19,095 nt of DNA. Source: Pseudobacteriovorax sp. (GTDB taxonomy: Bacteria > Bdellovibrionota_B > Oligoflexia > Oligoflexales > Oligoflexaceae). The position numbers and the translations under genes are program-made. The stretch's first letter is position 1. Every line of letters starts with the position of its first letter. The DNA lies in assembly GCA_050293845.1 (NCBI GenBank), contig JBNKNM010000101.1:1-19095 (forward strand). The letters run 5' to 3'. Positions 1 to 12,564 of the stretch are shown here, in pieces. Below the pieces are notes generated by a model, which saw only the letters and a list, made by a program, of their open reading frames with translations, was not told the origin of the DNA and did not search any database.

Positions 1-1057
1 TAAGAGCTGATACCGTGGAGACTGCCGACGCTATGGCCCAGTGATCATAGGGCGTCTGACAGGTTTCTTGGATGGCAACTGCTAATTGCCATAATCCACC
101 GCTAGGACAAGGAGCCTTTGGCGTTCCCTCAAATTTGGTCTCTGGTTTTTCAGAGGCAATCCTTTGCTGAGGAGCCTGCCGCTTGCGCTGTTTCCTTGAA
201 ACGCTAATACCAGCGTGATGAAAAAGCGTGCCAAGGGTACGCCCTTCGCTCTTAAATGAAGCCCATTTTTTAGCGCAAGCACCGGCTTGGTATTTACTGC
301 TTTGCTGTGACCACTGGTCCCATACGTCAAGGCCATGACTATCCCCTGTAGAGTGCAGGCACATGCCTATTTCAAGCCAATCTTCATAGCTGTGTGCCCT
401 GGCTCCCAGCCTTGAGAGGGCTTCACTGACAGCAAACCAATCAACGCTGCCGTCGAGGTAGCCCTGTCCTTTGTTTGAAGGTTGCTTTATAGAGCTAGAA
501 GGTAATTTTGACTTTTCACCCTCTGATAGTTTGATGAGCCATTTAGGCGCTTCCCGCATGGGAACATTCCAAGGTTCATATTTGTTGACCCATCTATATC
601 GTTCACCTGAAATATGAAGACTAGGAGCTAGAACAACATAGCCGCCGTTGGCACGGATATCGATACCCTTTAGGATTCCTGTGCGCGTCTTGAGCGGCCT
701 GTTTGTTCTGTAGAAGATATGAAAGCCACCGCCACCGGTATGGGCCATGACGGTCTTGAAATCATCCCCATACTTTGCCTTTAGCTCCCCTAGAGTTTCT
801 AGACCGCCACTTTTTTTATCGGCATCAAGGACAATTAACGACTCACCACAGTAAAGCCCCACATTGGAACCATTAAAATCTTCGGCGCTAGAGTGTACCC
901 TAGCGGACTTGAAGCCGCCTTTTGCCTTGGGGTGCTTTCCGGGGGTGCGACAATTATCGTCACTGCACGTACATTTGCCATTCTCAACAGTATAAAGAGG
1001 AAAGGTTTCTAGGTTACTAGCTGAAAATATATCGAGTGTTTTTTGCAATTCGCTCAT
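1..1057 (-). CDS. Bifunctional DNA primase/polymerase (Prim-Pol, AEP superfamily) with PriCT-2 domain; 3' end outside window
   Basis: Not in the ORF track; translated by hand from ATG at 1057 (SD GGAG upstream): MSELQKTLDIF...FPLYTVENGKCTCSDDNCRTPGKHP...NVGLYCGESLIVLDADKKSGG...HTGGGGFHIFY...GIDIRANGGYVLAPSLHISGERYRW (Prim-Pol motifs DxD, TxxGGxH, DIR-GGYV-APS), then SYEDWLEIGMCLH...WDQWSQQSSKY...KWASF...TLGTLFHHA (PriCT-2). The frame is open to the window edge. Confidence 0.92.
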   Translation of the reverse strand, partial: MSELQKTLDIFSASNLETFPLYTVENGKCTCSDDNCRTPGKHPKAKGGFKSARVHSSAEDFNGSNVGLYCGESLIVLDADKKSGGLETLGELKAKYGDDFKTVMAHTGGGGFHIFYRTNRPLKTRTGILKGIDIRANGGYVVLAPSLHISGERYRWVNKYEPWNVPMREAPKWLIKLSEGEKSKLPSSSIKQPSNKGQGYLDGSVDWFAVSEALSRLGARAHSYEDWLEIGMCLHSTGDSHGLDVWDQWSQQSSKYQAGACAKKWASFKSEGRTLGTLFHHAGISVSRKQRKRQAPQQRIASEKPETKFEGTPKAPCPSGGLWQLAVAIQETCQTPYDHWAIASAVSTVSAL

Positions 1058-1189: not shown

Positions 1190-2779
1190 TTAGAAAGGCA
1201 TTTCTGCCGAGTCATAAAAGTTAGGTTCAACGCGGGGAAACTTCGGATTTTTCCCCGGTATGATGTTTATGGTGTCAAACTTTAGATTATTTATTTTCCA
1301 GAGCTTAAGGTTAGCTCTTTTCCGCTGCCAGCTTTGACCAGCTCCCGTGAGAATCCATTCTTTATATCTCTTACCATCTTCCGTGTAGTAGTAGACAATA
1401 GAACAGTCTACACCATTTTTAGTTTGTTGATCGGTATAAACCTTAAATGAATCTACTGTATAGGTTTCATAGCTTGGACCTTGATAGGTCTCATCGGTGT
1501 GACTAATAAAAAGGTGCCCACAATGATCGCAAGTAGTTTGGCTCTCTGACATATTTTCGCATTTGGGGCATGCTCTTAAGCCACCTGATGAATGTGACCT
1601 ATTTTCTTCTCTGCGCTCTTGCTTTTTAATTGAACCTTCGATGTAGGGGTCTTCGATTGATCCAAAACGGTCTAAGTTCCCAGCCATGTCGAGCACAAGG
1701 CAGTCCTTCTTATCGTCTGCGGTTCTTAATCCACGACCTAGACACTGAATCAGAAGAGACACCGATTGCGTTGCTCTGAGCATAACCACACAATCAATGC
1801 TGGGTGCGTCAAATCCGGTCGTGAGTACCCCTACATTCACGATTGCCTGATATTTCTCTGCTTTGATATCAGCTAGTATCGTCTTTCTCACAGTACCAGT
1901 GATATCTCCATCCACATAGCAAACCGATTCGGGGCTTAAATACTCATTGGTGAGTTGATTAAAAACTTCCTTCGCATGGTCCCGAGAGCAGCAAAAGAAA
2001 ATTGACAGCTTCCGATCTGCGGCAAACTTATGCCATTTTTCAAGACAGGCACCAACGACCTTGTTGGATTCAACCGTTAGCTCTTTGCTATTATAGTCAC
2101 CTGTTGAGCTAATCTTGACGTTGCTAGTATCGATAAGGGAATCGATTTCAGGAAACTTGTATTCAGATAGGTAGCCCTGGTCAATTAGCTCTCTCATCTT
2201 GATCTCATAGGCAAGATCCTCGAAGAATGCCTTGTCATGGCCCCAGATCTCACCGATGCCTAGCCGCCAGGGCGTACCCGTAAAACCAACGACAAACTTC
2301 GCATTAGCCGAATGGACCTTAAAGATTTTGCCGTAGCTGGTTGAGCTATCGGCATTTATAAGGTGAGCCTCATCGATGATAATAGCGTCAAAGAAGCCGC
2401 AAATATCGGGTTTATTCCTAAGTGAATCTCGGGAGGCAAAGATCACCTGCTGCCTTTTGTCTTTCCTCCCTTCACCAGCGCAGTAGACGCCGGTGGTGAT
2501 TGTCGGTTCAAGGTCGTTAAGCGTAGCCTCATTCTGGGTGAGAAGGTGCCCCTGGTGGCAGAGTACCAAAACCCTGGCCCAGCGATGGCTCTTTAAAAAC
2601 CATTGGCAGAGCATGGCCACCATAAGGCCCTTACCCGAACCTGTAGGGGCGACACCTAATATTCGATGGGCTAAACCGGCGTCAATTTTCTTAGCAATGC
2701 TATCAATCATAGCTGTTTGGTAGTCTCTAGGCACAAAAGTTCTCTGTGCCGCTAAAGGCAGGGCCTTTGCAGTATCCAT
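1190..2779 (-). CDS. Superfamily 2 DEAH-box helicase, RadD/YejH/IRC3-like, with C-terminal zinc ribbon
   Basis: PRDYQ Q-motif, Walker A APTGSGKG, IIDEAH, GFTGTPWR, VLTTGFDAP, QCLGRGLR, CPKC-x9-CDHC. Confidence 0.93.
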   Translation of the reverse strand: MDTAKALPLAAQRTFVPRDYQTAMIDSIAKKIDAGLAHRILGVAPTGSGKGLMVAMLCQWFLKSHRWARVLVLCHQGHLLTQNEATLNDLEPTITTGVYCAGEGRKDKRQQVIFASRDSLRNKPDICGFFDAIIIDEAHLINADSSTSYGKIFKVHSANAKFVVGFTGTPWRLGIGEIWGHDKAFFEDLAYEIKMRELIDQGYLSEYKFPEIDSLIDTSNVKISSTGDYNSKELTVESNKVVGACLEKWHKFAADRKLSIFFCCSRDHAKEVFNQLTNEYLSPESVCYVDGDITGTVRKTILADIKAEKYQAIVNVGVLTTGFDAPSIDCVVMLRATQSVSLLIQCLGRGLRTADDKKDCLVLDMAGNLDRFGSIEDPYIEGSIKKQERREENRSHSSGGLRACPKCENMSESQTTCDHCGHLFISHTDETYQGPSYETYTVDSFKVYTDQQTKNGVDCSIVYYYTEDGKRYKEWILTGAGQSWQRKRANLKLWKINNLKFDTINIIPGKNPKFPRVEPNFYDSAEMPF

Positions 2780-2847: not shown

Positions 2848-3654
2848 TTAACTCTTCATAAGCTGTTTAATGGCTTCCTCTAGCTTAGTAACTTTGAACG
2901 GTACGGCGCTTGCTATAAGCTCTTTGTTAATCCGTTGCATTTCGCCGATTTCTTCGACACCCATACGCTTCATGGCATCCATTACCAGCATTTTCTGATG
3001 GTCAAGCCCCTGGTAGGGCATAACTCCAAGTTCAGCATTGGCAAGTTTAATCGGTTCCTCGGAAACAACTTCCGCCTGGCCCATCTCCTCAATGCTATGT
3101 AGACCCTCAAGATCCATAGGAAAGGCACGTCTAAGGGCTAGGGACTCGGCAACTTTAGCAATCATGGCCTCAGGGCCTTTTGCCCAAAAGCCGGTTGGCA
3201 CCATTTCTCCAGTCTTTTTGCTTTTATGCCTTTGCTCATAGGTAGCGAATTTGGCAATACCCCAAATAGCCTCACGTTTGCCCTTGCGATAGACACCAAC
3301 CTTGGCCGCTACGGGTGGATTGTCATCGATCCAAAAGTCACACCAACCCATTTCCTTGTCAAACCAAAAAGGACCGATATAACCTTCGTGCTCACCCGTG
3401 CGCTCTGCAATAATTCTTAGTGCATTGATACCTAGAAACGGGCGCATGACATATTGATTTTTGTCGTTATCCCACACCTTGATCGAATGGATTTGTTGGG
3501 TCAGCAAATCAAGGCCAAGCTTATTAGCCGTATAGAGCATCAAAGCTAGCTCATCATCTGAGCAGTCTTTGCCAATCATTCTTTTGACAAGTTCGAGTTG
3601 TTCTTGAGTGTTGCCAATATTATCAATAACAGTGTTTTGTTGTAGTGCTGTCAT
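2848..3654 (-). CDS. bet: Phage recombination protein Bet (RecT/Red-beta single-strand annealing protein)
   Basis: CSDDELALML...LGLDLLTQQIH...GINALRIIAERTGEHEG...W.D.W....PPVAAKVGVYRKG...W.K.PEAMIAKVAESLALRRAFP..L.GL.S.EEM, which matches the phage Bet family pattern. Confidence 0.92.
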   Translation of the reverse strand: MTALQQNTVIDNIGNTQEQLELVKRMIGKDCSDDELALMLYTANKLGLDLLTQQIHSIKVWDNDKNQYVMRPFLGINALRIIAERTGEHEGYIGPFWFDKEMGWCDFWIDDNPPVAAKVGVYRKGKREAIWGIAKFATYEQRHKSKKTGEMVPTGFWAKGPEAMIAKVAESLALRRAFPMDLEGLHSIEEMGQAEVVSEEPIKLANAELGVMPYQGLDHQKMLVMDAMKRMGVEEIGEMQRINKELIASAVPFKVTKLEEAIKQLMKS

Positions 3655-4013
3655 AGGTCAATATCCTCTAAAAGTTCGTTATCATCTTCGCTAATGGCCT
3701 CATCAAGAAAGTCGTTTTCAAGCATTTCTTTTTTAAGTTGCTCTCTTTGCTCTTTCTCACTGGCCGCCTTCTCTTTGATCACCCCGAAGCCAGGAAATAT
3801 CTTAATGATCATAGACTCAGGACATTGAATCGCTGAAAGGGCACCGATTATCCTCGGCGTGACAGTCGGTCCGGGGACCTCATGACCATTGAGGTATAAT
3901 GACATTGTAGATGGGCGTACTTTGCAGAAATTTGCAAAAGCTGCTTGACTATAACGTCTGCTTTTCAAAAATTGCTTCAACAGGCTATGGTTGAGTCGGT
4001 AGATATTTTTCAT
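3651..4013 (-). CDS. XRE/Cro-family helix-turn-helix protein with acidic C-terminal tail
   Basis: LKQFLKSRRYSQAAFANFCKVRPSTMSLYLNGHEVP is a typical HTH_3 pattern. SD AAGGAG lies at the end of the upstream gene, and there is an ATGA overlap with bet. Confidence 0.8.
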   Translation of the reverse strand: MKNIYRLNHSLLKQFLKSRRYSQAAFANFCKVRPSTMSLYLNGHEVPGPTVTPRIIGALSAIQCPESMIIKIFPGFGVIKEKAASEKEQREQLKKEMLENDFLDEAISEDDNELLEDIDL

Positions 4014-4017
4014 AGAA

Positions 4018-4653
4018 TTACTCCTTGTTTAACTGAACTCTAATTTTTGCTCTAAGTTTTTCCATTGAATATGGCAGCACCCCACCAGGGTCAAACCTAG
4101 TGCCGTCTCCCCTTGCTTCGTCAAAACCGCAGATTTGAGCTGGATCAATATTAAATGCAGTCACAGCCCACATAATAAATGATTCGAAAGTTTCAAGTTG
4201 AGCCGCTGACACTGTGTCCCAGTACATGATCGGGAACTGACCAGATTTAGCGGCAATGTTCGCCGGTCTTGGGAAAATGTTGGCAGGGCTAACCCTGTCT
4301 CCCGTCTCAGAGCGAAACGTCCTATTGAAACCGGGAACCACAACGCCCCACGATAGCAAGCTAACAATGAGGTGTTTGTTGTTAATGTCGTGGCCACCCC
4401 ATCTCACCTTACCGCCATGCCGCTGACTTGTGTGATAAGCTGATAGTTGAAACCCCCTTCCCCTGGCATCTATTAGCACATGAGTGCCTTGGCTAGACTC
4501 TTTCATATATCTGATAGCCTTTGCTCTACTTCTTTCGAATGTTGCGCGCACCGTTACACCAATTGGTTTGCCGTTGGCAAATTGCTTCCCTTGACCCAGT
4601 AGGTCATAGGAAAGAACGGTGAAGTTGCGCGCAGGGTGAGAATCGATCTTCAA
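4018..4653 (-). CDS. Amidase_2 / AmpD / PGRP-fold protein with degenerate active site
   Basis: Motif order matches Amidase_2: PIGVTVRAT, THVLIDARG..FQL, RHGGKVRWGG..IN, LIVSLL, SAAQLE, ICGFDE, RFDPGG.LP. Start chosen at TTG 4653 (GGAG 6 nt upstream) rather than TTG 4665, which has no SD. Confidence 0.75.
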   Translation of the reverse strand: MKIDSHPARNFTVLSYDLLGQGKQFANGKPIGVTVRATFERSRAKAIRYMKESSQGTHVLIDARGRGFQLSAYHTSQRHGGKVRWGGHDINNKHLIVSLLSWGVVVPGFNRTFRSETGDRVSPANIFPRPANIAAKSGQFPIMYWDTVSAAQLETFESFIMWAVTAFNIDPAQICGFDEARGDGTRFDPGGVLPYSMEKLRAKIRVQLNKE

Positions 4654-4703
4654 TTTGCGCTCCAAAAAACAGAAGAGGGGTGGATCAATAACGATCTACT
4701 AAA

Positions 4704-4732
4704 AACGTAGTGTGTGAAATTTAATTTGCCAA
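4704..4732 (-). promoter_or_regulatory. Putative sigma70 promoter for the leftward replication operon
   Basis: Minus strand TTGGCA-N17-TACGTT with an A9 tract (UP-like) just upstream of the -35. Confidence 0.5.
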
Positions 4733-5317
4733 GCTTTTTTTTTGGAGTTGCAAAATTGATATCACAAAAAATGACAACTTGTGATTAAGCCCATATTAAA
4801 GGGTAAATTGTGACGTTAATCGGCCTCGATTAAAAAGAGTCAACTAAAATTTCTTAGAGAATATTTAAAAAAGATCGTCATGTTCATAAAGAGCGCTCTT
4901 TGCGCTTTCACTTTAATCATCGTGGAAAAAAATTTGAGAATGCACGAGAGCGATTGCTGATGAGTGACTTTGGAGTAAGATGCAATATGAAATAAGAAAC
5001 TCTCAAATACCTTTCTATGAAAGGTAAATGAAAATTCTTACGGTTTGATCAGTTTTGCCTGGTTTAGCGGCAAATTGCGATTTTCGGGTGCTTTGAAAAA
5101 AATAGTCGTCGGAAATCATTTCGAAATTCGAAAATTTCTAAACAATTTTAGGGACAGACCTGCGCAATTATTTTTTAGATGTGATTCACTACCTGTTGTA
5201 GCGCGGATAAAGGAGGGATCTTCTCTCTCTTGATGCGATCAATCTTAAAATATTTCCCGGTAAGTTGAAACATCGTTGTTTCACAAGGGGACCACTTTAC
5301 CTAATTAAGGAATCCTT

Positions 5318-6202
5318 ATGTTTAAGAAAGTTCTCATTTTGACGTCAATTTCATTGTCTACTTCCGCTATATGCACAGATAAGGGAAACATAACGGAAGA
5401 AATCGTATCCCCTGCTCAGATATATAAAGTAAGTAAGAGCAGAACAGAGTTAGCAACAACTGTGACCCAGGCGACTCACCCGGATACCAATGTTAGTAGC
5501 CAACAAGTAGCTATTAGTTCTTTCGCCGCGAAAGGAGGTGCCGTCTTCGGGGTCAGTGGTAAGCATCAAACTTTCGAGGTGGCAGACATAGCAAATGGCT
5601 ATGGCCAAGCAAATGAGCTGTCAGTTATGGGAGCCTATACTTTTCATGACATACTAACTGTGGGTTTAAGGGGAGAATTTGGCAACTTTCATAAGCATGT
5701 ATTTGACCTAAGTTCCGTAAGTGAATACCAAGGTTACTATGATGACCGCTCATATAGCAGTTACCAAGTTGGGCTTGCAGTACATCAAAAAGGTTTTGAG
5801 CTGGGCCTGACATACAAACCCAAGTATGAACAAAACGGGTTGCTACTCAGGGAAGAAGTGCTCGCACATGGTAGCTTCGCCTTATCTGATAGTTTAGATA
5901 TTGGTCTTGTTGCTAGGGCTGAGCCTACTTATAAAGGTCAAAAGAAATATGACCTGACGGCCTTCACTGACTATAGGCAAACCGACTCTTTCACTATCCG
6001 GCCAGCACTTTCCTACTACAAGGTAGATCCAGACGGAAAAAATACAAGAGCGTATGAAGCTAGCCTTGGTGCATACTACGACATTTCAAATGTAACTCTC
6101 GGGGCAAAAGTTTCATACAGGCTATCTGACCCTAACGATGACCTACGTAAATCAGACTTCAAACAATCTTCCGCAATGGCCTCTATTGCGTACAGGCTCT
6201 AG
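5318..6202 (+). CDS. Outer-membrane beta-barrel protein (prophage accessory/moron gene)
   Basis: Sec signal peptide (MFKKVLILTSISLSTSA), repeated amphipathic strands (LTVGLRG, YQVGLAV, FELGLTY, LDIGLVA, ASLGAYY, TLGAKVSY) and a C-terminal beta-signal ASIAYRL. SD AAGGA. Confidence 0.8.
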   Translation: MFKKVLILTSISLSTSAICTDKGNITEEIVSPAQIYKVSKSRTELATTVTQATHPDTNVSSQQVAISSFAAKGGAVFGVSGKHQTFEVADIANGYGQANELSVMGAYTFHDILTVGLRGEFGNFHKHVFDLSSVSEYQGYYDDRSYSSYQVGLAVHQKGFELGLTYKPKYEQNGLLLREEVLAHGSFALSDSLDIGLVARAEPTYKGQKKYDLTAFTDYRQTDSFTIRPALSYYKVDPDGKNTRAYEASLGAYYDISNVTLGAKVSYRLSDPNDDLRKSDFKQSSAMASIAYRL

Positions 6203-6220: not shown

Positions 6221-6251
6221 GGGCGGGGCTTCGGCCCTTGCTCATTTCCTT
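6221..6251 (+). terminator. Stem-loop with cUUCGg tetraloop after the beta-barrel gene (probable weak intrinsic terminator)
   Basis: GGGCGGGGC-TTCG-GCCCTTGCTC followed by ATTTCCTT. Confidence 0.6.
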
Positions 6252-6264
6252 AAAGGGTTCAGAT

Positions 6265-6837
6265 ATGGCAGATATAGCTAATAAACCGACACCGATGGAA
6301 TACGCAGCACAAAGCCTTACTGATATTTATAGGCTTATAGATAACAGTGAAACCATCGACGATTACTTGATCAATAATTTTAAACAGTCAAGCCTTAAGC
6401 TAGCAAGCGCTATCGATCGCAGGATTGCACTGTTAAAAAACCTTAAATTTGAACAGGACAAACTCAAAACCATTAAAGGGCAATATGAAAACTATCTAAG
6501 AACTGTGCGACGTATTGAGGAAAGTGTTAAGGATTATACGAAGTATATCATGGAAGGTAATCCAAATTTACAGTATCGGGGTGATTTGGGTCGTATAGCT
6601 TTACAGCCATCTCAGCCTAAGTTGGTATTAGATTTTTCCCTTGAAAGCCGGACAATTTCAAATTGTATCTCGGACAAAGTACTACTCGATACCAAGATAC
6701 CTGAAAAATACATCGTTAAGCACATCCACTATGCAATCGATCGTGAAGCAATCAAGACCTATCTCGGTCAAGGTGATGTTAGCCTACCATGGGCACGCCT
6801 TGTTAGAGACAAACACATAAGAATTTATCGAGCATAA
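6265..6837 (+). CDS. Siphovirus Gp157-like protein
   Basis: Helical N-terminus (KLASAIDRRIALLKNLK...RRIEESVKDYTKYIME), then IALQPSQPKLVLD...IPEKYI...IDREAIKTYL.QG....WARLVRDKHIRI, the characteristic Gp157 C-terminus. ATG 6265 preferred (AAAGGG upstream). Confidence 0.8.
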   Translation: MADIANKPTPMEYAAQSLTDIYRLIDNSETIDDYLINNFKQSSLKLASAIDRRIALLKNLKFEQDKLKTIKGQYENYLRTVRRIEESVKDYTKYIMEGNPNLQYRGDLGRIALQPSQPKLVLDFSLESRTISNCISDKVLLDTKIPEKYIVKHIHYAIDREAIKTYLGQGDVSLPWARLVRDKHIRIYRA

Positions 6838-6857: not shown

Positions 6858-7208
6858 ATGATAAAGAAAAAAGCATACGATTTTAGGGAAGTAAAAGGCT
6901 ATTCGGTAGCAGAATTGGCAGAAAAACTCGATATGTCAGAAGAGAAGCTTTTATCTGTGGTTGACATCAAGCTACTCACCCGTTTCCAAGAACGGGGCTT
7001 TGATGTCGTTATCGGCGAAAAGGTCGAGGACTCGATCATAGGTCTTAAGGCGGCTCGAATTATCGGCAAGAAATTCTTTAAGGAAGTAGCTCAGGACTTT
7101 ATTGATGCCCTAGAAGTTCACCTGATTCTAGAAGCCCACGATGACAAGATTAGAAGGGAATTTAGCCATATCCCTTCTACCTCTGAAGCAGAAAAAAAAT
7201 CACACTAA
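6858..7208 (+). CDS. Stand-alone antirepressor-like DNA-binding domain protein (paralogous to the N-terminus of the next gene)
   Basis: GYSVAELAEKLDMSEEKL HTH-like start; aligns by eye with the N-terminal domain of 7219..8070. Confidence 0.6.
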   Translation: MIKKKAYDFREVKGYSVAELAEKLDMSEEKLLSVVDIKLLTRFQERGFDVVIGEKVEDSIIGLKAARIIGKKFFKEVAQDFIDALEVHLILEAHDDKIRREFSHIPSTSEAEKKSH

Positions 7209-7218
7209 GGAGAAAACT

Positions 7219-8070
7219 ATGAGCAAAAACGAATTAAAACCCATCTACGTTGCACCTTCACCAAAAGCCGAGCTTGGCGGGAAAGAAGGACTTTATGCCG
7301 ATGAGATTGCAATAAGCTTAGGTATTCCCCCTAAGAAGGTTCGGTCTAAGCTTGAGTCCGAGGGATTTCTTGGTCTCTTAAAAGAGTATGATTTTGACAC
7401 GGTTCGATTTCGGACCCCGAATAAATCCAATAGTATAGAGTTCACAGAATATGCATTAGAGACCATTGCGGCTAAATTTTTTGTTGCCCGATATAATAAT
7501 AAAATGGGTAACGGCTACCTAATCTATTTGCTCCAACTAGAAGCATTTGTAGAAAAGCAAAAAGGAATGACTTCTAGGTTGGAGTTGTTCTGCCAAACAG
7601 ACCCTATCTTTGGCCTACATCTGAGTGCAATAAAAGAGAGAAAAAGAGTACTCGAACGCCGTGAGGCTCAAGATCAAAAGCACTATGAAGGCATCGAAGC
7701 AATTGTTAATCGCAACCTTCCAAGCACGTCACTGGGATCGTTGACTCGTAATCTAGCTAAGAAGTCTTCTCGAAAAACCGCTGGGAACAGTATAAGCGAA
7801 ACCATTTCACTTAAGAAATTAAGCCAAGATTATTTCTATGGCTTGGCTCCACATATCATTAATCGGTATCTGAAATCGGTTAACCACGGAAAAAAAGGAA
7901 GTATGTGGCTGCGAGAGGGGATTGAATTTGCAGCGCGCCGTTTCTTTAAGGATGTCACTTTTGATCGTCACATTGAAGATCAGAAACTGAATGTTTACTA
8001 TCACAAACCTATTGGCTTCCACTTCACTACTGCTGACCATGTTGATCCATTACCTATTAGCAACAACTAA
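7219..8070 (+). CDS. Antirepressor-like protein (AntA/AntB-like N-domain plus C-terminal domain shared with next gene)
   Basis: SD TAAGGAG before ATG 7219. EYALETIAAKFFVARYNNKMGNGYLIYLLQLE resembles the AntA/AntB segment EY.L.ld.AK...m...n..G...r.Yfi..E. Confidence 0.65.
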   Translation: MSKNELKPIYVAPSPKAELGGKEGLYADEIAISLGIPPKKVRSKLESEGFLGLLKEYDFDTVRFRTPNKSNSIEFTEYALETIAAKFFVARYNNKMGNGYLIYLLQLEAFVEKQKGMTSRLELFCQTDPIFGLHLSAIKERKRVLERREAQDQKHYEGIEAIVNRNLPSTSLGSLTRNLAKKSSRKTAGNSISETISLKKLSQDYFYGLAPHIINRYLKSVNHGKKGSMWLREGIEFAARRFFKDVTFDRHIEDQKLNVYYHKPIGFHFTTADHVDPLPISNN

Positions 8071-8075
8071 CCGTC

Positions 8076-8110
8076 AAAAAAGCAAGGGTAGCAGTGGTTG
8101 CTACCCAAGC
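8076..8110 (-). terminator. Intrinsic terminator oriented on the minus (antisense) strand
   Basis: Perfect 8-bp inverted repeat GGGTAGCA-GTGGT-TGCTACCC (8086-8106), with A6 at 8076-8081 on the plus strand giving a U-tract for minus-strand RNA. Confidence 0.6.
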
Positions 8111-8140
8111 ACTAAAATTGAATACATAAGGATCTCTCTT

Positions 8141-9025
8141 ATGACAAATCTTCAAGTGTTTCAAAAGGAAATTACGACCCAAGGCAAACGACTATTTGTC
8201 GATCTTGTCAGAATGGAAGGTGATGAGTTTGTTACCGTATCCCAAGCGGCGACAATGTTTGGTGTGACCTATCGGAACATTCATAAACACCTAAAGAATC
8301 ACAATTTAACTGGTAGAAAGATAGTAGACCAGTCCATTAATGACTTTAAAGATCAAGGACTTGTGGACAAAAGAGCAAGGGAGGTTGTCCTCCTTGGAAA
8401 AGATACAGTCCGTCAATTAGTTAGAGTTATTAATACTCAGCAAGCAAAGGAGGTCTATAACTTGCTATGGGAAGTTGCTGAGCGGGCAGATCATTTTTAC
8501 CAAAAACAAGCAGCTTCTATTGATCCTTTAGATGTGGTGCTAAATACCATACTAGCCGTGAAGGAGCATAATCGTCGCACCGAATTGGTCCAAGCAGAAC
8601 ACAATAGCCGCATTGAAGCAGTAGAGCAAAAGACAAGCCCCGAAGCCTTGAAAGCTGTCATGGGTGAAGCAATTATAGAGCAATCTAGGTTTCCCCAAGG
8701 ATGCACCCCCATGGCTGACATTAGGAGGCTCTATTTTTTCGGTATAGCTGAGAAAATGATCCGGGATGTCTTGGATTATCTAAACCACCCTTGGGAGTAT
8801 TATCGAATCCATATCGAGGATACTAACAGCTATCGGGATGGTCGTGCGTATAGGACTAAAGGCTTAACTGCCGCTTCTGAGCTTTTCCTTGAAGAGGTTA
8901 AGCTCTCAAAAATGACAGATACTAACTATATTTACTACCACCAAGGGCTAGGTCGAAATTTCTATAAGCCAAGGCATTCTGGCCCGCTACCGTTGATTGA
9001 TAAGCAATTAAATCAAATAAGCTGA
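8141..9025 (+). CDS. ORF6N/Bro-N-like antirepressor-type protein
   Basis: SD AAGGA before ATG 8141. FVTVSQAATMFGVTYRNIHKHL...FKDQGLVDKRAREVVLL...VINTQQAKEVYNLL resembles ORF6N. A coiled linker and a C-domain shared with 7219..8070 follow. Confidence 0.65.
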   Translation: MTNLQVFQKEITTQGKRLFVDLVRMEGDEFVTVSQAATMFGVTYRNIHKHLKNHNLTGRKIVDQSINDFKDQGLVDKRAREVVLLGKDTVRQLVRVINTQQAKEVYNLLWEVAERADHFYQKQAASIDPLDVVLNTILAVKEHNRRTELVQAEHNSRIEAVEQKTSPEALKAVMGEAIIEQSRFPQGCTPMADIRRLYFFGIAEKMIRDVLDYLNHPWEYYRIHIEDTNSYRDGRAYRTKGLTAASELFLEEVKLSKMTDTNYIYYHQGLGRNFYKPRHSGPLPLIDKQLNQIS

Positions 9026-9127
9026 TGTGGCAGCCATATGGTTTTCTATGGCCCCTAATTTCAGGGGCTTACACTGCAAACATGACATTGAATGAATAAG
9101 GTTAAAATGATACTTTGTGGAGATTTT

Positions 9128-9355
9128 ATGGGTACTGATAAGGCTAAAGCTGATCAAGACCAGCTCTTTGAAAACTTTATAAGCATAGAGCAACTTGCGG
9201 AACTAATCGGTAGGAAACCAAAGACTATTGTGAACTGGTGCCACGAGCGGAAGATACCACATATCAAAGCTGGTAGTCGCACCTTGTTCCTAAGGTCATC
9301 GGTGTATGCGTGGCTTGCTTCTTCGGAGGTAAAAAATGTCAAAAAACGTCGATAA
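9128..9355 (+). CDS. xis: Excisionase / HTH_17 DNA-binding protein
   Basis: FISIEQLAELIGRKPKTIVNWCHERKIPHIKAGSRTLFLRSSVYAWL; directly upstream of the integrase. SD GGAG before ATG 9128. Confidence 0.85.
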   Translation: MGTDKAKADQDQLFENFISIEQLAELIGRKPKTIVNWCHERKIPHIKAGSRTLFLRSSVYAWLASSEVKNVKKRR

Positions 9356-9394: not shown

Positions 9395-10582
9395 ATGGCT
9401 GTGACTATGAGAACCAGAAAAAGGGATGGTAAAACTGTAAGGTTTTATCATGCTGAGGTTTGGATAAGAGGTAAGAGAGCTACTAGCAAGTCTTTTGATA
9501 ATCGTGCCGAGGCATACCAGTGGCATGATGACGAAAAGCGGTTAAGGACCATTGGTTTTGCTAATCCTGATATCAAGACCGACTACACGTTAGAAGATCT
9601 TGTTACCGAGTATCGAAGAGTTGAAGAACCAACCAAACGACGATCTACTGTTGAAGCAGATGAGTGTCGATGGAAATATTTTCTTGATTCTCCGTTAGCA
9701 AACCTACCTGTAACAAATATCAATGCTATGGCTATTGATCATTGGTTTGAATGGCTTCATGATCATGATTGCGTTAAGTCGTATAAAAGAACTTCATTCC
9801 TATATGAGCTAGCTTTGTTCAAAACTTTGCTTAATTGGTATCGAGAGAATAAGGAGAATGGCTATGTTGTCCCCTTTCTTCGCCGCCATAAGAAAAGAAC
9901 TAAGATTCCTGGCAAGGTTAGCTACAGAGGAAAGACTAACGAGTTCTACATGAACGTTGAAGACGTTAAAAGGTGGCTAGAAGTTCTGGAAACAATGAAA
10001 AATCCAGTTTATCTAAAGCTTGCCCATCTAATGGTAGGAACAGGTTTTCGTTTGGGTGAAGCTTGTGGTTTGCGTTGGTCGCCATGTATCGATTTTGATA
10101 ATAGTACTATTACTATAGATCGAACTCTTTCATGGGATCAAAAGACTAAGCGGCCCTACCTTCAAGATGAGGGCGAAGCTAAAAACACTCAGTCCTTAAG
10201 AACCATAGCAATGCCTGAAGGTCTTAGGATAATGCTTTTGGAAATGAAGGTAAAAAGTAGGCATCGCCATTTCATCTTTGAACGAGATACGGGTGAGGCA
10301 CTACATTACTCAACTTTGTATAAGGCTTTTTCTGGATCTATGGAGAAGGCGGGAATCAAGTTTTCTGGCACTCATATCTGTCGGCATACGTTTGCAACTC
10401 TGGCCCTTAAGGTCACAGGGGATCTAGCGAAGATCCAAAACGTTCTAGGTCACATTAGCGAAAGGCAAACCAAGCACTACGCTAAAATCGCAATCCTAAA
10501 CGGCAACGATACGCCTCAACAAGTCTACGGTCTTTTTCAAAATTTAGGTGACTCAAAAAAAGAAACCCCGGTAAGTTTTTAA
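9395..10582 (+). CDS. int: Tyrosine recombinase / phage integrase
   Basis: Catalytic set intact: TGFRLGE (R), AKN (K), HICRHT (H-x-x-R), LGH, TKHYAK (Y). N-terminal arm-binding-like beta domain. SD AAGGAGG. Confidence 0.96.
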   Translation: MAVTMRTRKRDGKTVRFYHAEVWIRGKRATSKSFDNRAEAYQWHDDEKRLRTIGFANPDIKTDYTLEDLVTEYRRVEEPTKRRSTVEADECRWKYFLDSPLANLPVTNINAMAIDHWFEWLHDHDCVKSYKRTSFLYELALFKTLLNWYRENKENGYVVPFLRRHKKRTKIPGKVSYRGKTNEFYMNVEDVKRWLEVLETMKNPVYLKLAHLMVGTGFRLGEACGLRWSPCIDFDNSTITIDRTLSWDQKTKRPYLQDEGEAKNTQSLRTIAMPEGLRIMLLEMKVKSRHRHFIFERDTGEALHYSTLYKAFSGSMEKAGIKFSGTHICRHTFATLALKVTGDLAKIQNVLGHISERQTKHYAKIAILNGNDTPQQVYGLFQNLGDSKKETPVSF

Positions 10583-10740: not shown

Positions 10741-10816
10741 TGGTGGAGGTAAGCGGAGTCGAACCGCTGACCCTCAGAATGCAAATCTGATGCTCTACCA
10801 ACTGAGCTATACCCCC
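10741..10816 (-). tRNA. tRNA-Ala(TGC), prophage attachment site
   Basis: GGGGGTATAGCTCAGTTGGTAGAGCATCAGATTTGCATTCTGAGGGTCAGCGGTTCGACTCCGCTTACCTCCACCA: 76 nt, anticodon TGC, G3-U70 alanine identity pair, encoded CCA. Confidence 0.98.
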
Positions 10817-10943: not shown

Positions 10944-10980
10944 ATATAATGACACAGTGCACAAATGGGAGGGTTATTCC

Positions 10981-12564
10981 ATGGGACGCAAATCTTTGAT
11001 GATAACAATTAGTCTAGCTTTATCGCTTTGCAGCTGCGGTCGGTCTAAGGGCGGTGGGCAAGACTCAGGTGTATCCCTAGGAGAAATTAGGTCCACAGTC
11101 GGCCAGGTGTCCCAAGAGTTTCAAATTCCTTCTCGGCTGCTACTTGCCGTGGGGTTCAAGGAGTCGGGACTTTCTGCCCTTCCTTCCAGCAGTATCTATA
11201 ATGCCGAGCATAGCCTCGGAGTTTCTGTAGGCGAAAGTGCATTTGGTCTGAAGCTGGATGAACTAGGTCTCGAAAATGAAGACAGCAGCTATCAGCTTCC
11301 GAGTCAAATTCGTGCCTACGCTAAACTTGTCAGAACTTACATCGACGAAAAGGGTCTAAGTTTAGGTATTAATATCGACAGCCCTGATGAACTATATGAC
11401 TGGGTATGGCAACTGTCCCTCTTGCACCGTAAAAGCAACAAAAATCGTAAAAATGTACAGATTATTTTCGCTCTCGAACTCATCAACTATCTTAATGAAG
11501 GTTATACCTGGCAATCTTCAAAAACAGGAGAGATTGTTCAATTAGCCCCAGCAAATCCAAAAATTCTAACAGAAAACTTTTCCAATCAGATTCAAAAAAA
11601 CCTAGAACTGGATACTCAAAAAAGTGAGATTTATTCTGTAGACTACATGCAACTGACCTTTGATCAAGGCTCTGGACAACTCAATATACCGAACCACATC
11701 CGGGTCATTCATTGTCCATTTTCATTATCTGCCTGCTTGGAAATACAAAGTAAAACCCATAATCAGGAAGATGCTAGATTACAAGCTCACTATGTTATTC
11801 CTCCAGATCAAAGCATACTCACAAACCCCATAAAAATTCTGCAACACAGGATTCCTGTACTTGTGACCGATAATTTGGGCAGGGTAGAGCAGATTCGTAA
11901 CGCCGTTGTCATCATGCTAGTTGGTGACAGCGGTCGCTATGTAGATGGCATTCGTGTGCGGAGTAATCCCCTGTGGTATACTTCCTACCAGTTAAAAAAC
12001 CTAGGCGAAATCGTCCATGGTATTTGTGAGCTGATGAAATTAGATAACCCTACGGTTAATCTCGATACATGTAAGATTCCTGGGGTTTCCGGTGGAGTTC
12101 AATTTATGGAACAAGGTTCATCCGAGAATTATCGCTGGGGCACCATTCCAGATTTTAACAAAAATATCTTTTGGAGTTACATCTATGATCCTGATGAACA
12201 AGACGGTTCAGCAGAATTTGATTTCGGTAAGGAAGAACGCCTCTATAATGCCGGAGAGTCTATTGATTTTGATGTAAATTTTATCCGCGGCGCAAGGAAA
12301 ATAGAAATCGAGCTTCTCGAGAGGTGCGAGAATGGAAAAACAATCTGGACAACCTTAGAAACAAGGTATGTCAGGGATGCAGCCTCTAGCCACATACAAA
12401 CTCGACTATACCAACAGGGGCCCAATTTCAATGGACAACATTTTTTCCGCGCACTAGTTTATGGAGAAGATAACCGACTGACATCTTGGGCTGTGGTTGA
12501 TCTATTTTTAAAGGACTATGATCAAGAAAAATATGTTTTTGCAGAATTAGATGCTTGCTCTTAA
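10981..12564 (+). CDS. Putative lipoprotein with lysozyme/SLT-like N-domain and degenerate Amidase_2-like domain
   Basis: SD GGGAGG before ATG 10981. Lipobox-like signal (MGRKSLMITISLALSLCSCG). EFQIPSRLLLAVGFKESG (SLT-like helix with ES), then HIRVIHC, AHYVI, AVVIMLVG, WYTSYQLKNLGEIV in Amidase_2 motif order. Confidence 0.6.
   Translation: MGRKSLMITISLALSLCSCGRSKGGGQDSGVSLGEIRSTVGQVSQEFQIPSRLLLAVGFKESGLSALPSSSIYNAEHSLGVSVGESAFGLKLDELGLENEDSSYQLPSQIRAYAKLVRTYIDEKGLSLGINIDSPDELYDWVWQLSLLHRKSNKNRKNVQIIFALELINYLNEGYTWQSSKTGEIVQLAPANPKILTENFSNQIQKNLELDTQKSEIYSVDYMQLTFDQGSGQLNIPNHIRVIHCPFSLSACLEIQSKTHNQEDARLQAHYVIPPDQSILTNPIKILQHRIPVLVTDNLGRVEQIRNAVVIMLVGDSGRYVDGIRVRSNPLWYTSYQLKNLGEIVHGICELMKLDNPTVNLDTCKIPGVSGGVQFMEQGSSENYRWGTIPDFNKNIFWSYIYDPDEQDGSAEFDFGKEERLYNAGESIDFDVNFIRGARKIEIELLERCENGKTIWTTLETRYVRDAASSHIQTRLYQQGPNFNGQHFFRALVYGEDNRLTSWAVVDLFLKDYDQEKYVFAELDACS

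Follow-up and report, generated by a model that had tools for sequence, protein, structure and literature searches.

Dead relatives of cell-wall hydrolases are already known as receptors: the non-catalytic peptidoglycan recognition proteins (PGRPs), such as PGRP-SA and PGRP-LE of Drosophila, display the Amidase_2 fold, miss the zinc ligands and still bind muropeptides. In a different group of systems built around small XRE-type genes, namely ImmR/ImmA, DdrO/IrrE and CapH/CapP, the repressor is cleaved by its partner, an active zinc metallopeptidase. T7 lysozyme (gp3.5), a zinc amidase again of the Amidase_2 fold, has a second, non-catalytic role in inhibiting T7 RNA polymerase, a function described in PMC4573324 as independent of catalysis. 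Here we set beside these systems a gene coding for a 211-aa protein, hereinafter the pseudo-amidase, which heads the leftward operon of an integrative element in a 19,095-nucleotide stretch of Pseudobacteriovorax sp. DNA (contig JBNKNM010000101.1; the whole stretch is hereinafter the window). The original prediction, made from this sequence, viewed the protein as a catalytically dead amidase that heads a phage replication operon, is coupled to a helix-turn-helix (HTH) gene and possibly conveys the status of the cell wall. We find an Amidase_2 protein that has lost the zinc and catalytic residues and nevertheless bears the marks of purifying selection. What appears to be new is a dead Amidase_2 protein that selection maintains as the first product of an integrative element's replication/regulatory operon; full-text literature searches, judged from listings and abstracts, recovered no description of a dead Amidase_2 protein encoded in the replication operon, or in an early operon, of any mobile element.

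Fold and active site of the pseudo-amidase

The pseudo-amidase gene lies on the minus strand (4018..4653) with a TTG start at 4653; an alternative TTG at 4665 would yield a product of 215 aa. The open reading frame (ORF) is unbroken from 4018 to 4665, with the TTG start at its outer end. The database protein P0003, which is the self-match of the pseudo-amidase, likewise starts at the TTG at 4653 (211 aa), and a GGAG Shine-Dalgarno-like motif read from the sequence (4660..4663, minus strand) stands at a 6-nt spacer from that codon. We compared the contigs of four DNA runs with the window; a run from a second study covers part of the gene with a 398-nt contig over 4103-4500, showing three differences, and a 151-nt contig over 4529-4679, showing none. 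The N-terminus has no hydrophobic segment or signal peptide. The intact frame and the missing signal peptide agree with the original prediction, as does the lack of holin or lysis genes nearby: none of the window ORFs scanned belongs to a holin or lysis family, and the gene thus lacks the lysis cassette expected of a phage endolysin.

The sequence reaches the Amidase_2 family through intermediates. The pseudo-amidase misses the gathering cutoff of Pfam Amidase_2 (PF01510) with 16.5 bits vs 26 (E=0.011) and finds no match in PADLOC, NCBIfam or PHROGs, while a direct sequence search of the PDB returns only spurious WD40 and MMP-9 matches. An exhaustive HMMER search of 1.84 billion representatives recovers 103 matches at E<=1e-3, 48 of them at E<=1e-10, and the matches (to E=1.3e-32) go to proteins that themselves match Amidase_2. 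Our set A1 comprises the window protein and 58 of these HMMER matches, leaving out the self-match P0003, three long repeat proteins, three short fragments and P0061; the repeat proteins were omitted as their matches consist of many short stretches, comparable to the spurious WD40 match. Amidase_2 is matched at E<=0.01 by 58 of the 59 A1 sequences, the sole exception being the window protein itself. An AlphaFold2 model built from A1 attains a predicted local distance difference test (pLDDT) of 91.4 and a predicted template modelling score (pTM) of 0.88, and a Foldseek search with it retrieves 45 PDB chains at E<=1e-3, the best being AmpD (2y2b, E=1.9e-7). The Foldseek matches listed further include AmpDh2/3, AmiD, phage endolysins of the Amidase_2 fold, PGRPs and T7 lysozyme, the last (1aro_L) at rank 42 with E=8.4e-4. 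Moreover, the family profile matches AmpDh2 at 2e-19, and the ESM Atlas neighbours of the pseudo-amidase are Amidase_2 clusters, about 90% of them viral. Homology through intermediates and the structure model together establish that the pseudo-amidase is an Amidase_2-fold protein, which confirms the fold assigned by the original prediction.

The residues of the active site are given in the numbering of the 211-aa protein, with column counts from A5, an alignment of 96 sequences made up of the window protein and 95 of the 103 matches (the self-match and seven long repeat proteins being omitted). Equivalence to solved enzymes is drawn from a profile alignment to AmpDh2 and from A4, an alignment with T7 lysozyme taken from NC_001604. 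In the former, ...HYT... corresponds to HYTS, GHdE to GHSD and gRKvDPG to GRKVDPG, with the Ala of '...avalvswG' opposite the Glu of IGIEIVNQG. In the latter, the T7 lysozyme segments VHCSAT, GYHFII, GVCLV and AHHEV fall in the same columns, and the catalytic positions correspond to its His17, Tyr46, His122, Lys128 and Cys130. The motifs cited by the original prediction, VTVRAT, LIVSL, ICGFDE and RFDPGG, are all found in the translation, and its broad statement that the zinc and catalytic residues are lost with the Asp of DPG kept is borne out. A literature search for the AmpD residue numbers that it quotes returned no match. Position 36 is His in 89/96 sequences and Arg in the window protein; position 177 is His in 88/96 and Phe in the window protein; position 57, a Tyr in 71/96, is Thr; and position 186, a Lys in 86/96, is Arg. 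Only position 188, Asp in 91/96, is kept as Asp. By this alignment, the pseudo-amidase has a different residue at four of the five positions that serve catalysis or zinc binding in the T7 type. The zinc triad (His, His, Asp/Cys) that marks an active amidase (EC 3.5.1.28) is reduced to Asp188 alone, and in place of the catalytic acid/base (Tyr or Glu) and the Lys the window protein has Thr57, Ser98 and Arg186. PMC4573324 describes the T7 site as His17, His122 and Cys130, plus Tyr46 via a water, with K128T lowering activity, and for the endolysin Ts2631 gives 3-17% activity remaining after substitution at the corresponding residues (H30N, Y58F, H131N and C139S).

One of the losses named in the original prediction has to be reassigned. 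It had counted the Ser of LIVSL as a loss of the 'GIE' Glu, but at this position (98) the 96 sequences have Ala in 42, Ser in 17, Cys in 12 and Glu in 18, so that Ser, Ala or Cys is the state in 71/96. Tyr57 is missing from all 18 Glu98 sequences, and the Tyr-bearing sequences have Ala, Ser or Cys at 98. The family thus has two alternative catalytic set-ups, a Tyr type as in T7 lysozyme and a Glu type as in AmpD; since the subfamily of the window protein is of the Tyr type, its Ser98 is ordinary, and the real fourth loss is that of Tyr57 to Thr. With the subfamily having a T7-type active site, the parallel to T7 lysozyme drawn by the original prediction is apt. More generally, the Tyr-or-Glu alternation can be used in the annotation of amidases for separating true catalytic loss from normal subfamily variation.

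Absence of both zinc His residues is confined to three of the 96 sequences. Over the five positions, the window protein reads R,T,F,R,D, its paralog P0004 reads K,G,I,R,D and P0009 reads A,Y,L,E,S. P0009 is a 202-aa database protein encoded on a 2-kb contig, and in our tree it is sister to the zinc-retaining P0027 (support 92). As it groups apart from the dead pair, catalysis was lost at least twice in the family.

Selection and ancestry

The paralog P0004 is encoded in the same genome, on contig C26 (207/208 residues identical, the mismatch being the start codon). It is intact, 35% identical to the pseudo-amidase and occupies the syntenic position in a sister element on C26. A quick IQ-TREE phylogeny of 85 rows, with 11 fragments omitted, pairs it with the window protein (SH-aLRT 99) inside the Tyr-type clade, and the stem of this dead pair measures 1.18 changes per site vs 0.06-0.4 for the other inner branches shown. 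Between the two genes the proportion of nonsynonymous differences (pN) is 0.45 and that of synonymous differences (pS) 0.77, the latter saturated, and nucleotide identity over the three codon positions is 46%, 63% and 34%. Under random substitution at the observed 52% divergence only 2/20000 replicates stay stop-free. In the family, 23 columns are conserved at >=85%; 18 of these are unchanged in the window protein and 16 in the paralog, and the five lost by the window protein (His36, Ala80, His177, Arg185 and Lys186) lie at or next to the active centre in sequence. Given the codon-position pattern, the stop-free frames, the kept family columns and the intact syntenic paralog, we conclude that both copies bear the signature of purifying selection and that the pseudo-amidase is a maintained pseudoenzyme and no relic. 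Neutral evolution, which the original prediction had named as an outcome that would speak against it, does not fit these data.

To trace the ancestry of the pair, we searched with A3, the zinc-retaining members of the family, and recovered 41 IMG/VR loci and one in a cyanobacterial metagenome-assembled genome. Thirty-one loci were examined after two without a clean gene call, four near-duplicates and five weak matches were set aside. In 14/31 of them, a small ORF of <=145 aa that contains a hydrophobic segment precedes the amidase gene by one or two genes on the same strand, a holin-like placing. PHROGs profiles (E<=1e-5) run on 140 ORFs neighbouring the zinc-retaining relatives identify a tail fibre, a terminase with portal, or a tail-fibre assembly protein in three loci, and the relatives further adjoin RecE-like plus Sak4 genes (L009, L014), a Mu Gam-like gene (L010, L015), HNH and other endonucleases, ParB-like genes and queuosine genes. 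None of the 140 ORFs falls in the 'transcription regulation' category of PHROGs. A tblastn search of named phages finds 'amidase' genes of about 28% identity in alphaproteobacterial phages of roughly 150 kb. Because the zinc-retaining relatives are found almost throughout in viral loci, in 14/31 cases behind a holin-like ORF, and are joined by Atlas neighbours that are about 90% viral, the ancestors of the pseudo-amidase look like phage endolysins. The association with HTH, RecT, helicase and primase genes is particular to the dead pair. The original prediction had proposed to examine whether homologs share the ligand loss and this neighbourhood; the paralog shares both, and the zinc-retaining relatives lie in other contexts.

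Searches for further members of the dead clade returned little. A word-based search finds the pseudo-amidase itself only, and A7 scans of viral contigs and metagenome contigs yield no dead-clade member. A profile search of the phylum's 131 genomes gives one further match, a canonical Glu-type amidase behind a membrane ORF in genome G004. Relatives of the element sought through RecT come down to RecT genes of 36-41% identity in other contexts, and those sought through the HTH protein to generic HTH matches.

Operon, control region and element

The pseudo-amidase gene is the first of the leftward operon, as originally stated, and is followed by the gene for a putative XRE-type HTH protein (3651..4013, minus strand; 120 aa). 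Its TAA occupies 4020-4018 and is separated by 4 nt from the HTH ATG at 4013; an AAGGAG (4021..4026, minus strand) falls within its last two sense codons, 7 nt upstream of that ATG, and indicates translational coupling to the HTH gene. The same junction recurs in the sister element, where AGGAGA and TAA are followed after 1 nt by the HTH ATG. The ribosome-binding layout described in the original prediction is sound. However, the ATG of the downstream RecT-family single-strand annealing protein (2848..3654, minus strand) overlaps the HTH stop codon (ATGA), so that the coupling, though real, belongs to the whole operon and extends beyond the amidase-HTH pair to which it had been ascribed.

The HTH protein matches HTH_31 (E=0.019, under the Pfam cutoff) and the phrog_3 repressor profile (E=1e-5). 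Its N-terminal 75 aa are basic (isoelectric point (pI) ~10) and its last 40 aa acidic (pI ~4); an acidic tail with hydrophobic final residues is present in both elements (window 3651-3770), and these tails are reminiscent of the partner-recruiting tails of single-strand-binding proteins. An AlphaFold2 model (pLDDT 80.5) has five short helices, a long helix at 74-106 and a disordered end. Its best PDB matches are all XRE-type and weak (E>=0.019): ClgR, HigA, CylR2 and TP901-1 CI, and further P22 c2, DdrO, CapH and SinR. Some of these, albeit at such weak E-values, work with partner proteins (HigA, DdrO, CapH, SinR and TP901-1 CI). Co-folding of the pseudo-amidase (A1) with the HTH protein (A6) scored 0.00 in both runs, which were without controls, and speaks neither for nor against binding.

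Upstream of the pseudo-amidase gene, a divergent control region of 664 bp (4654..5317) separates the leftward and rightward operons and contains no convincing ORF. It has no detectable nucleotide similarity to its counterpart in the sister element. The original prediction had placed the gene behind a leftward promoter, a detail that is not confirmed: a consensus scan of 3500-5400 finds no sigma-70-like site on the minus strand, and the window control region has no repeat array. The sister control region (C26 6171-6259) has about seven TCGTGA motifs at 10-bp spacing, resembling an operator or iteron array and flanked by two copies of TTGTTCACGATGAA.

The sister element on C26 has the same gene order and lies beside a tRNA-Ala(GGC) gene. 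Amino-acid identity between the two elements is 84% for the primase, 88% for the helicase and 76% for RecT but drops to 38% for the HTH protein and 35% for the pseudo-amidase; on the rightward side it is 42% for the first gene, 51% for the Gam-like protein, 63% for the excisionase and 68% for the integrase. Nucleotide similarity ends at position 3600 of the window, and no alignment is obtained between the control regions. Divergence between the elements is thus greatest over the pseudo-amidase gene, the HTH gene and the control region, a pattern as found in an immunity or regulatory module, and this divergence is our main, though indirect, reason for placing the pseudo-amidase and the HTH protein in regulation.

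The rest of the leftward operon codes for a superfamily-2 DNA helicase with ResIII and Helicase_C domains (1190..2779, minus strand) and a Prim-Pol/PriCT_2 primase (2..1057, minus strand), which is cut by the contig end and has a 725-aa copy in the sister element. In the rightward direction, the first gene (5318..6202, plus strand) codes for 294 aa. Its product begins with a hydrophobic, signal-like segment, matches the beta-barrel porin-like BBP2 weakly (E=9e-4) and could be a surface moron or an exclusion protein. This gene is followed by those for a Gp157/Mu Gam-like protein (6238..6837, plus strand), an HTH_17 excisionase-like protein (9092..9355, plus strand) and a tyrosine integrase (9395..10582, plus strand). 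Between the Gam-like and excisionase genes are three ORFs of 116, 309 and 344 aa with no family match (6858-9025, plus strand), at whose place the sister element has a single HTH_17-like ORF of 98 aa. The tRNA-Ala(TGC) gene (10741..10816, minus strand), the only feature found by an Rfam scan, is the presumed attachment site because it points its 3' end towards the integrase. In this genome, related integrases adjoin tRNA-Ala genes at no fewer than three places (C101, C26 and C64). The far end of the element lies off the contig. A 20-nt copy of the tRNA-Ala 3' end on another contig (C121:344-363) is a candidate distal attachment (att) site. When the first 320 nt of C26 were compared with the tRNA-Ala region of that contig in search of att sites, no shared repeat of >=10 nt came up.

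No capsid, tail, large terminase or lysis gene is seen in the 10.7 kb of the element that lie in the window. The first 77 nt of C26 overlap the ends of contigs C78 and C251, which are thus two candidate continuations. Both go on with RusA, a small-terminase-like HTH gene, genes of unassigned family, DUF4747 and a SIR2-like gene, and in neither was a large terminase, portal, capsid, tail or lysis gene found. Accordingly, the element may be a satellite and not a phage, its content fitting a satellite-like element at least as well as a prophage. Since no structural genes are seen and the content is satellite-like, the label 'phage replication operon' used in the original prediction is only half sustained: the RecT-helicase-primase operon is there, but its phage nature is not established. 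Some further genes invite comment. The SIR2-like and DUF4747 genes of the candidate continuations (C251 4714-5739 and C78 7342-8202) may be defence-type cargo. C121 10429-12903 (minus strand) codes for a polymorphic-toxin-like protein (PT-TG, with a WHH/colicin-DNase C-terminus), followed by a SUKH-family immunity gene. Just outside the element, 10957-12564 (plus strand) specifies a 535-aa protein with a lipoprotein-like N-terminus and no Pfam, NCBIfam or PADLOC match.

Candidate functions

The sequence evidence suggests that the pseudo-amidase probably serves a new purpose, as a binding or regulatory protein without enzymatic activity. Compared with a PGRP-like binder, it has lost the zinc ligands and retains 18/23 of the conserved family columns, and muropeptide binding by it is putative. 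We tentatively posit, with somewhat less than even confidence, that it is an endolysin-derived protein which has lost hydrolysis and which the early/regulatory module retains for non-enzymatic binding, by which it tunes HTH control. On this proposal, a phage endolysin of the T7-lysozyme type would have lost its hydrolytic chemistry and its descendant would stay in the cytoplasm. The former substrate groove would still be in use, with Arg36 (Lys in the paralog) replacing the first zinc His, and might hold a muropeptide-like ligand or an acidic peptide, for instance the acidic tail of the HTH protein. Such binding would tune HTH control of the divergent promoters in an element-specific manner. 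Conceivably, Arg/Lys36 stands in for the metal next to Asp188. If the sensing of wall fragments or the holding of a regulator proves true, it would represent a new kind of induction input for mobile elements and also a clear case of endolysin re-use.

Several points weigh against this proposal. Binding of a ligand or partner by the pseudo-amidase is itself a proposal from sequence, and no promoter or operator was identified in the window control region. The adjacency to the HTH gene may simply reflect a compact operon, the HTH gene being equally coupled to RecT, and the divergence of the region could stem from diversifying selection unrelated to regulation or from region-replacing recombination. 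Furthermore, the only dead close kin among the 1.84 billion representatives of the exhaustive HMMER search are the protein itself and its paralog, and a single-protein search of 60 related genomes found no homolog; with the dead clade in one genome, conservation of the pairing rests on two related, non-independent elements.

A bolder version, which we consider unlikely, is that the endolysin was domesticated as the ligand-sensing subunit of a two-protein immunity switch, in which the dead amidase would retain its groove for muropeptides and report cell-wall damage to its cognate XRE repressor. Such damage could arise when a phage breaches the wall or in the course of wall turnover, and the signal would trigger the replication operon; each sister element would have co-evolved its own set of sensor, repressor and operator. 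Were it true, the switch would be the bacterial mobile-element counterpart of non-catalytic PGRP sensing in animals.

At a similarly low level of likelihood, the pseudo-amidase might act as T7 lysozyme does, modulating the host RNA polymerase, the Prim-Pol or the helicase and so timing transcription or replication, with the HTH protein uninvolved. Its subfamily has the active-site type of T7 lysozyme, it leads a RecT-helicase-primase operon, and some zinc-retaining relatives adjoin recombination genes (L009, L014, L010 and L015). In T7, the amidase gene is likewise found among DNA-metabolism genes, between those for endonuclease I and an HNH protein (NC_001604), and PMC4573324, citing Cheng et al. 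1994, states that the amidase-defective T7 lysozymes Y46F and K128T retain RNA polymerase inhibition. However, no single-subunit RNA polymerase or other RNA polymerase family occurs among the element ORFs scanned, and T7 lysozyme is only a distant structural match at the rank noted above. We know of no conservation of its polymerase-binding surface outside T7-like phages.

A little more doubtful is a role as a lysis-interfering decoy, by which a dead copy of the endolysin of a helper or competing phage occupies peptidoglycan or endolysin partners and delays or blocks lysis for the benefit of the element. In favour are the phage-endolysin character of the closest active relatives, the retention of conserved non-catalytic positions of the fold, and the satellite-like content of the element (integrase, excisionase, primase and helicase, with RusA and the small-terminase-like gene in the candidate continuations, and no structural genes seen). 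Yet without a signal peptide the protein could reach the wall only after holin action, its gene sits in an early replication operon away from late genes, and no helper phage is known.

We give still less credence to a toxin-antitoxin-like or addiction pair, in which the basic protein would be neutralised by an acidic-tailed XRE antitoxin encoded downstream, the genes being ordered as in higBA. That order and the translational coupling fit, as do the pI of 9.99 for the pseudo-amidase (8.46 for the paralog) vs ~4 for the HTH tail, and the HTH model has HigA antitoxins among its best structural matches. On the other hand, no toxin family is known with a non-catalytic Amidase_2 fold, PADLOC gives no match, the HigA likeness is that of the generic XRE fold (E>=0.019), and RecT directly follows the pair in the same operon.

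The two remaining alternatives are very improbable. For the protein to be a hydrolase still, His58, His79, Glu179, Asp188 or Cys175 would have to rebuild a metal site or support metal-independent catalysis; the fold is intact and His58, His79, Glu179 and Asp188 are kept, but these four are equally conserved in active relatives with the canonical triad and are therefore no replacements, while both zinc His, the Tyr and the Lys are lost in two copies, and PMC4573324 gives single substitutions in a relative that cost 83-97% of activity. A functionless endolysin relic carried along by the operon, with which the loss of all catalytic residues and the restriction of the clade to this genome would agree, is hard to square with two copies that are intact at 35% identity, with their codon-position identities and conserved columns, and with the rarity of open frames among neutral replicates.

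Comparison with known systems

The bacterial anhydro-muramyl-L-alanine amidases AmpD, AmpDh2 and AmiD are the best structural and profile matches of the pseudo-amidase (2y2b at 1.9e-7; AmpDh2 at 2e-19), and AmpD is cytoplasmic, as the pseudo-amidase is predicted to be. They differ in being active enzymes of the Glu type with a full zinc triad, whereas the pseudo-amidase has the Asp only and neither the Glu nor the Tyr.

T7 lysozyme is nearer in the make-up of its active site. Like the parent subfamily of the pseudo-amidase, it combines the Amidase_2 fold with His, Tyr, His, Lys and Cys/Asp and has no 'GIE' Glu; like the pseudo-amidase itself, it is small, has no signal peptide and is encoded among DNA-metabolism genes, and it is cytoplasmic, as is predicted for the pseudo-amidase. 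It differs in being an active enzyme, in sharing only 17% identity with the pseudo-amidase (A4) and in belonging to a lytic phage as opposed to an integrative element; moreover, the T7 system includes a T7-type RNA polymerase, which has no counterpart among the genes of the element scanned.

The non-catalytic PGRPs, which are among the structural matches (1sxr, 2cb3 and 1s2j), offer a precedent for an Amidase_2 protein without its zinc ligands. They are eukaryotic, however, and mostly secreted or membrane receptors, and they are of separate descent, the pseudo-amidase being nested in a phage amidase clade.

Finally, compared with the metallopeptidase partners of XRE proteins in mobile elements and defence systems, the pseudo-amidase is of another fold and lacks a metal site, and its partnership is a proposed one. 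In their layout the two agree: as in ImmR/ImmA, DdrO/IrrE, CapH/CapP and TP901-1 CI/MOR, a small XRE gene is coupled to an accessory gene beside the divergent control region of a mobile element.

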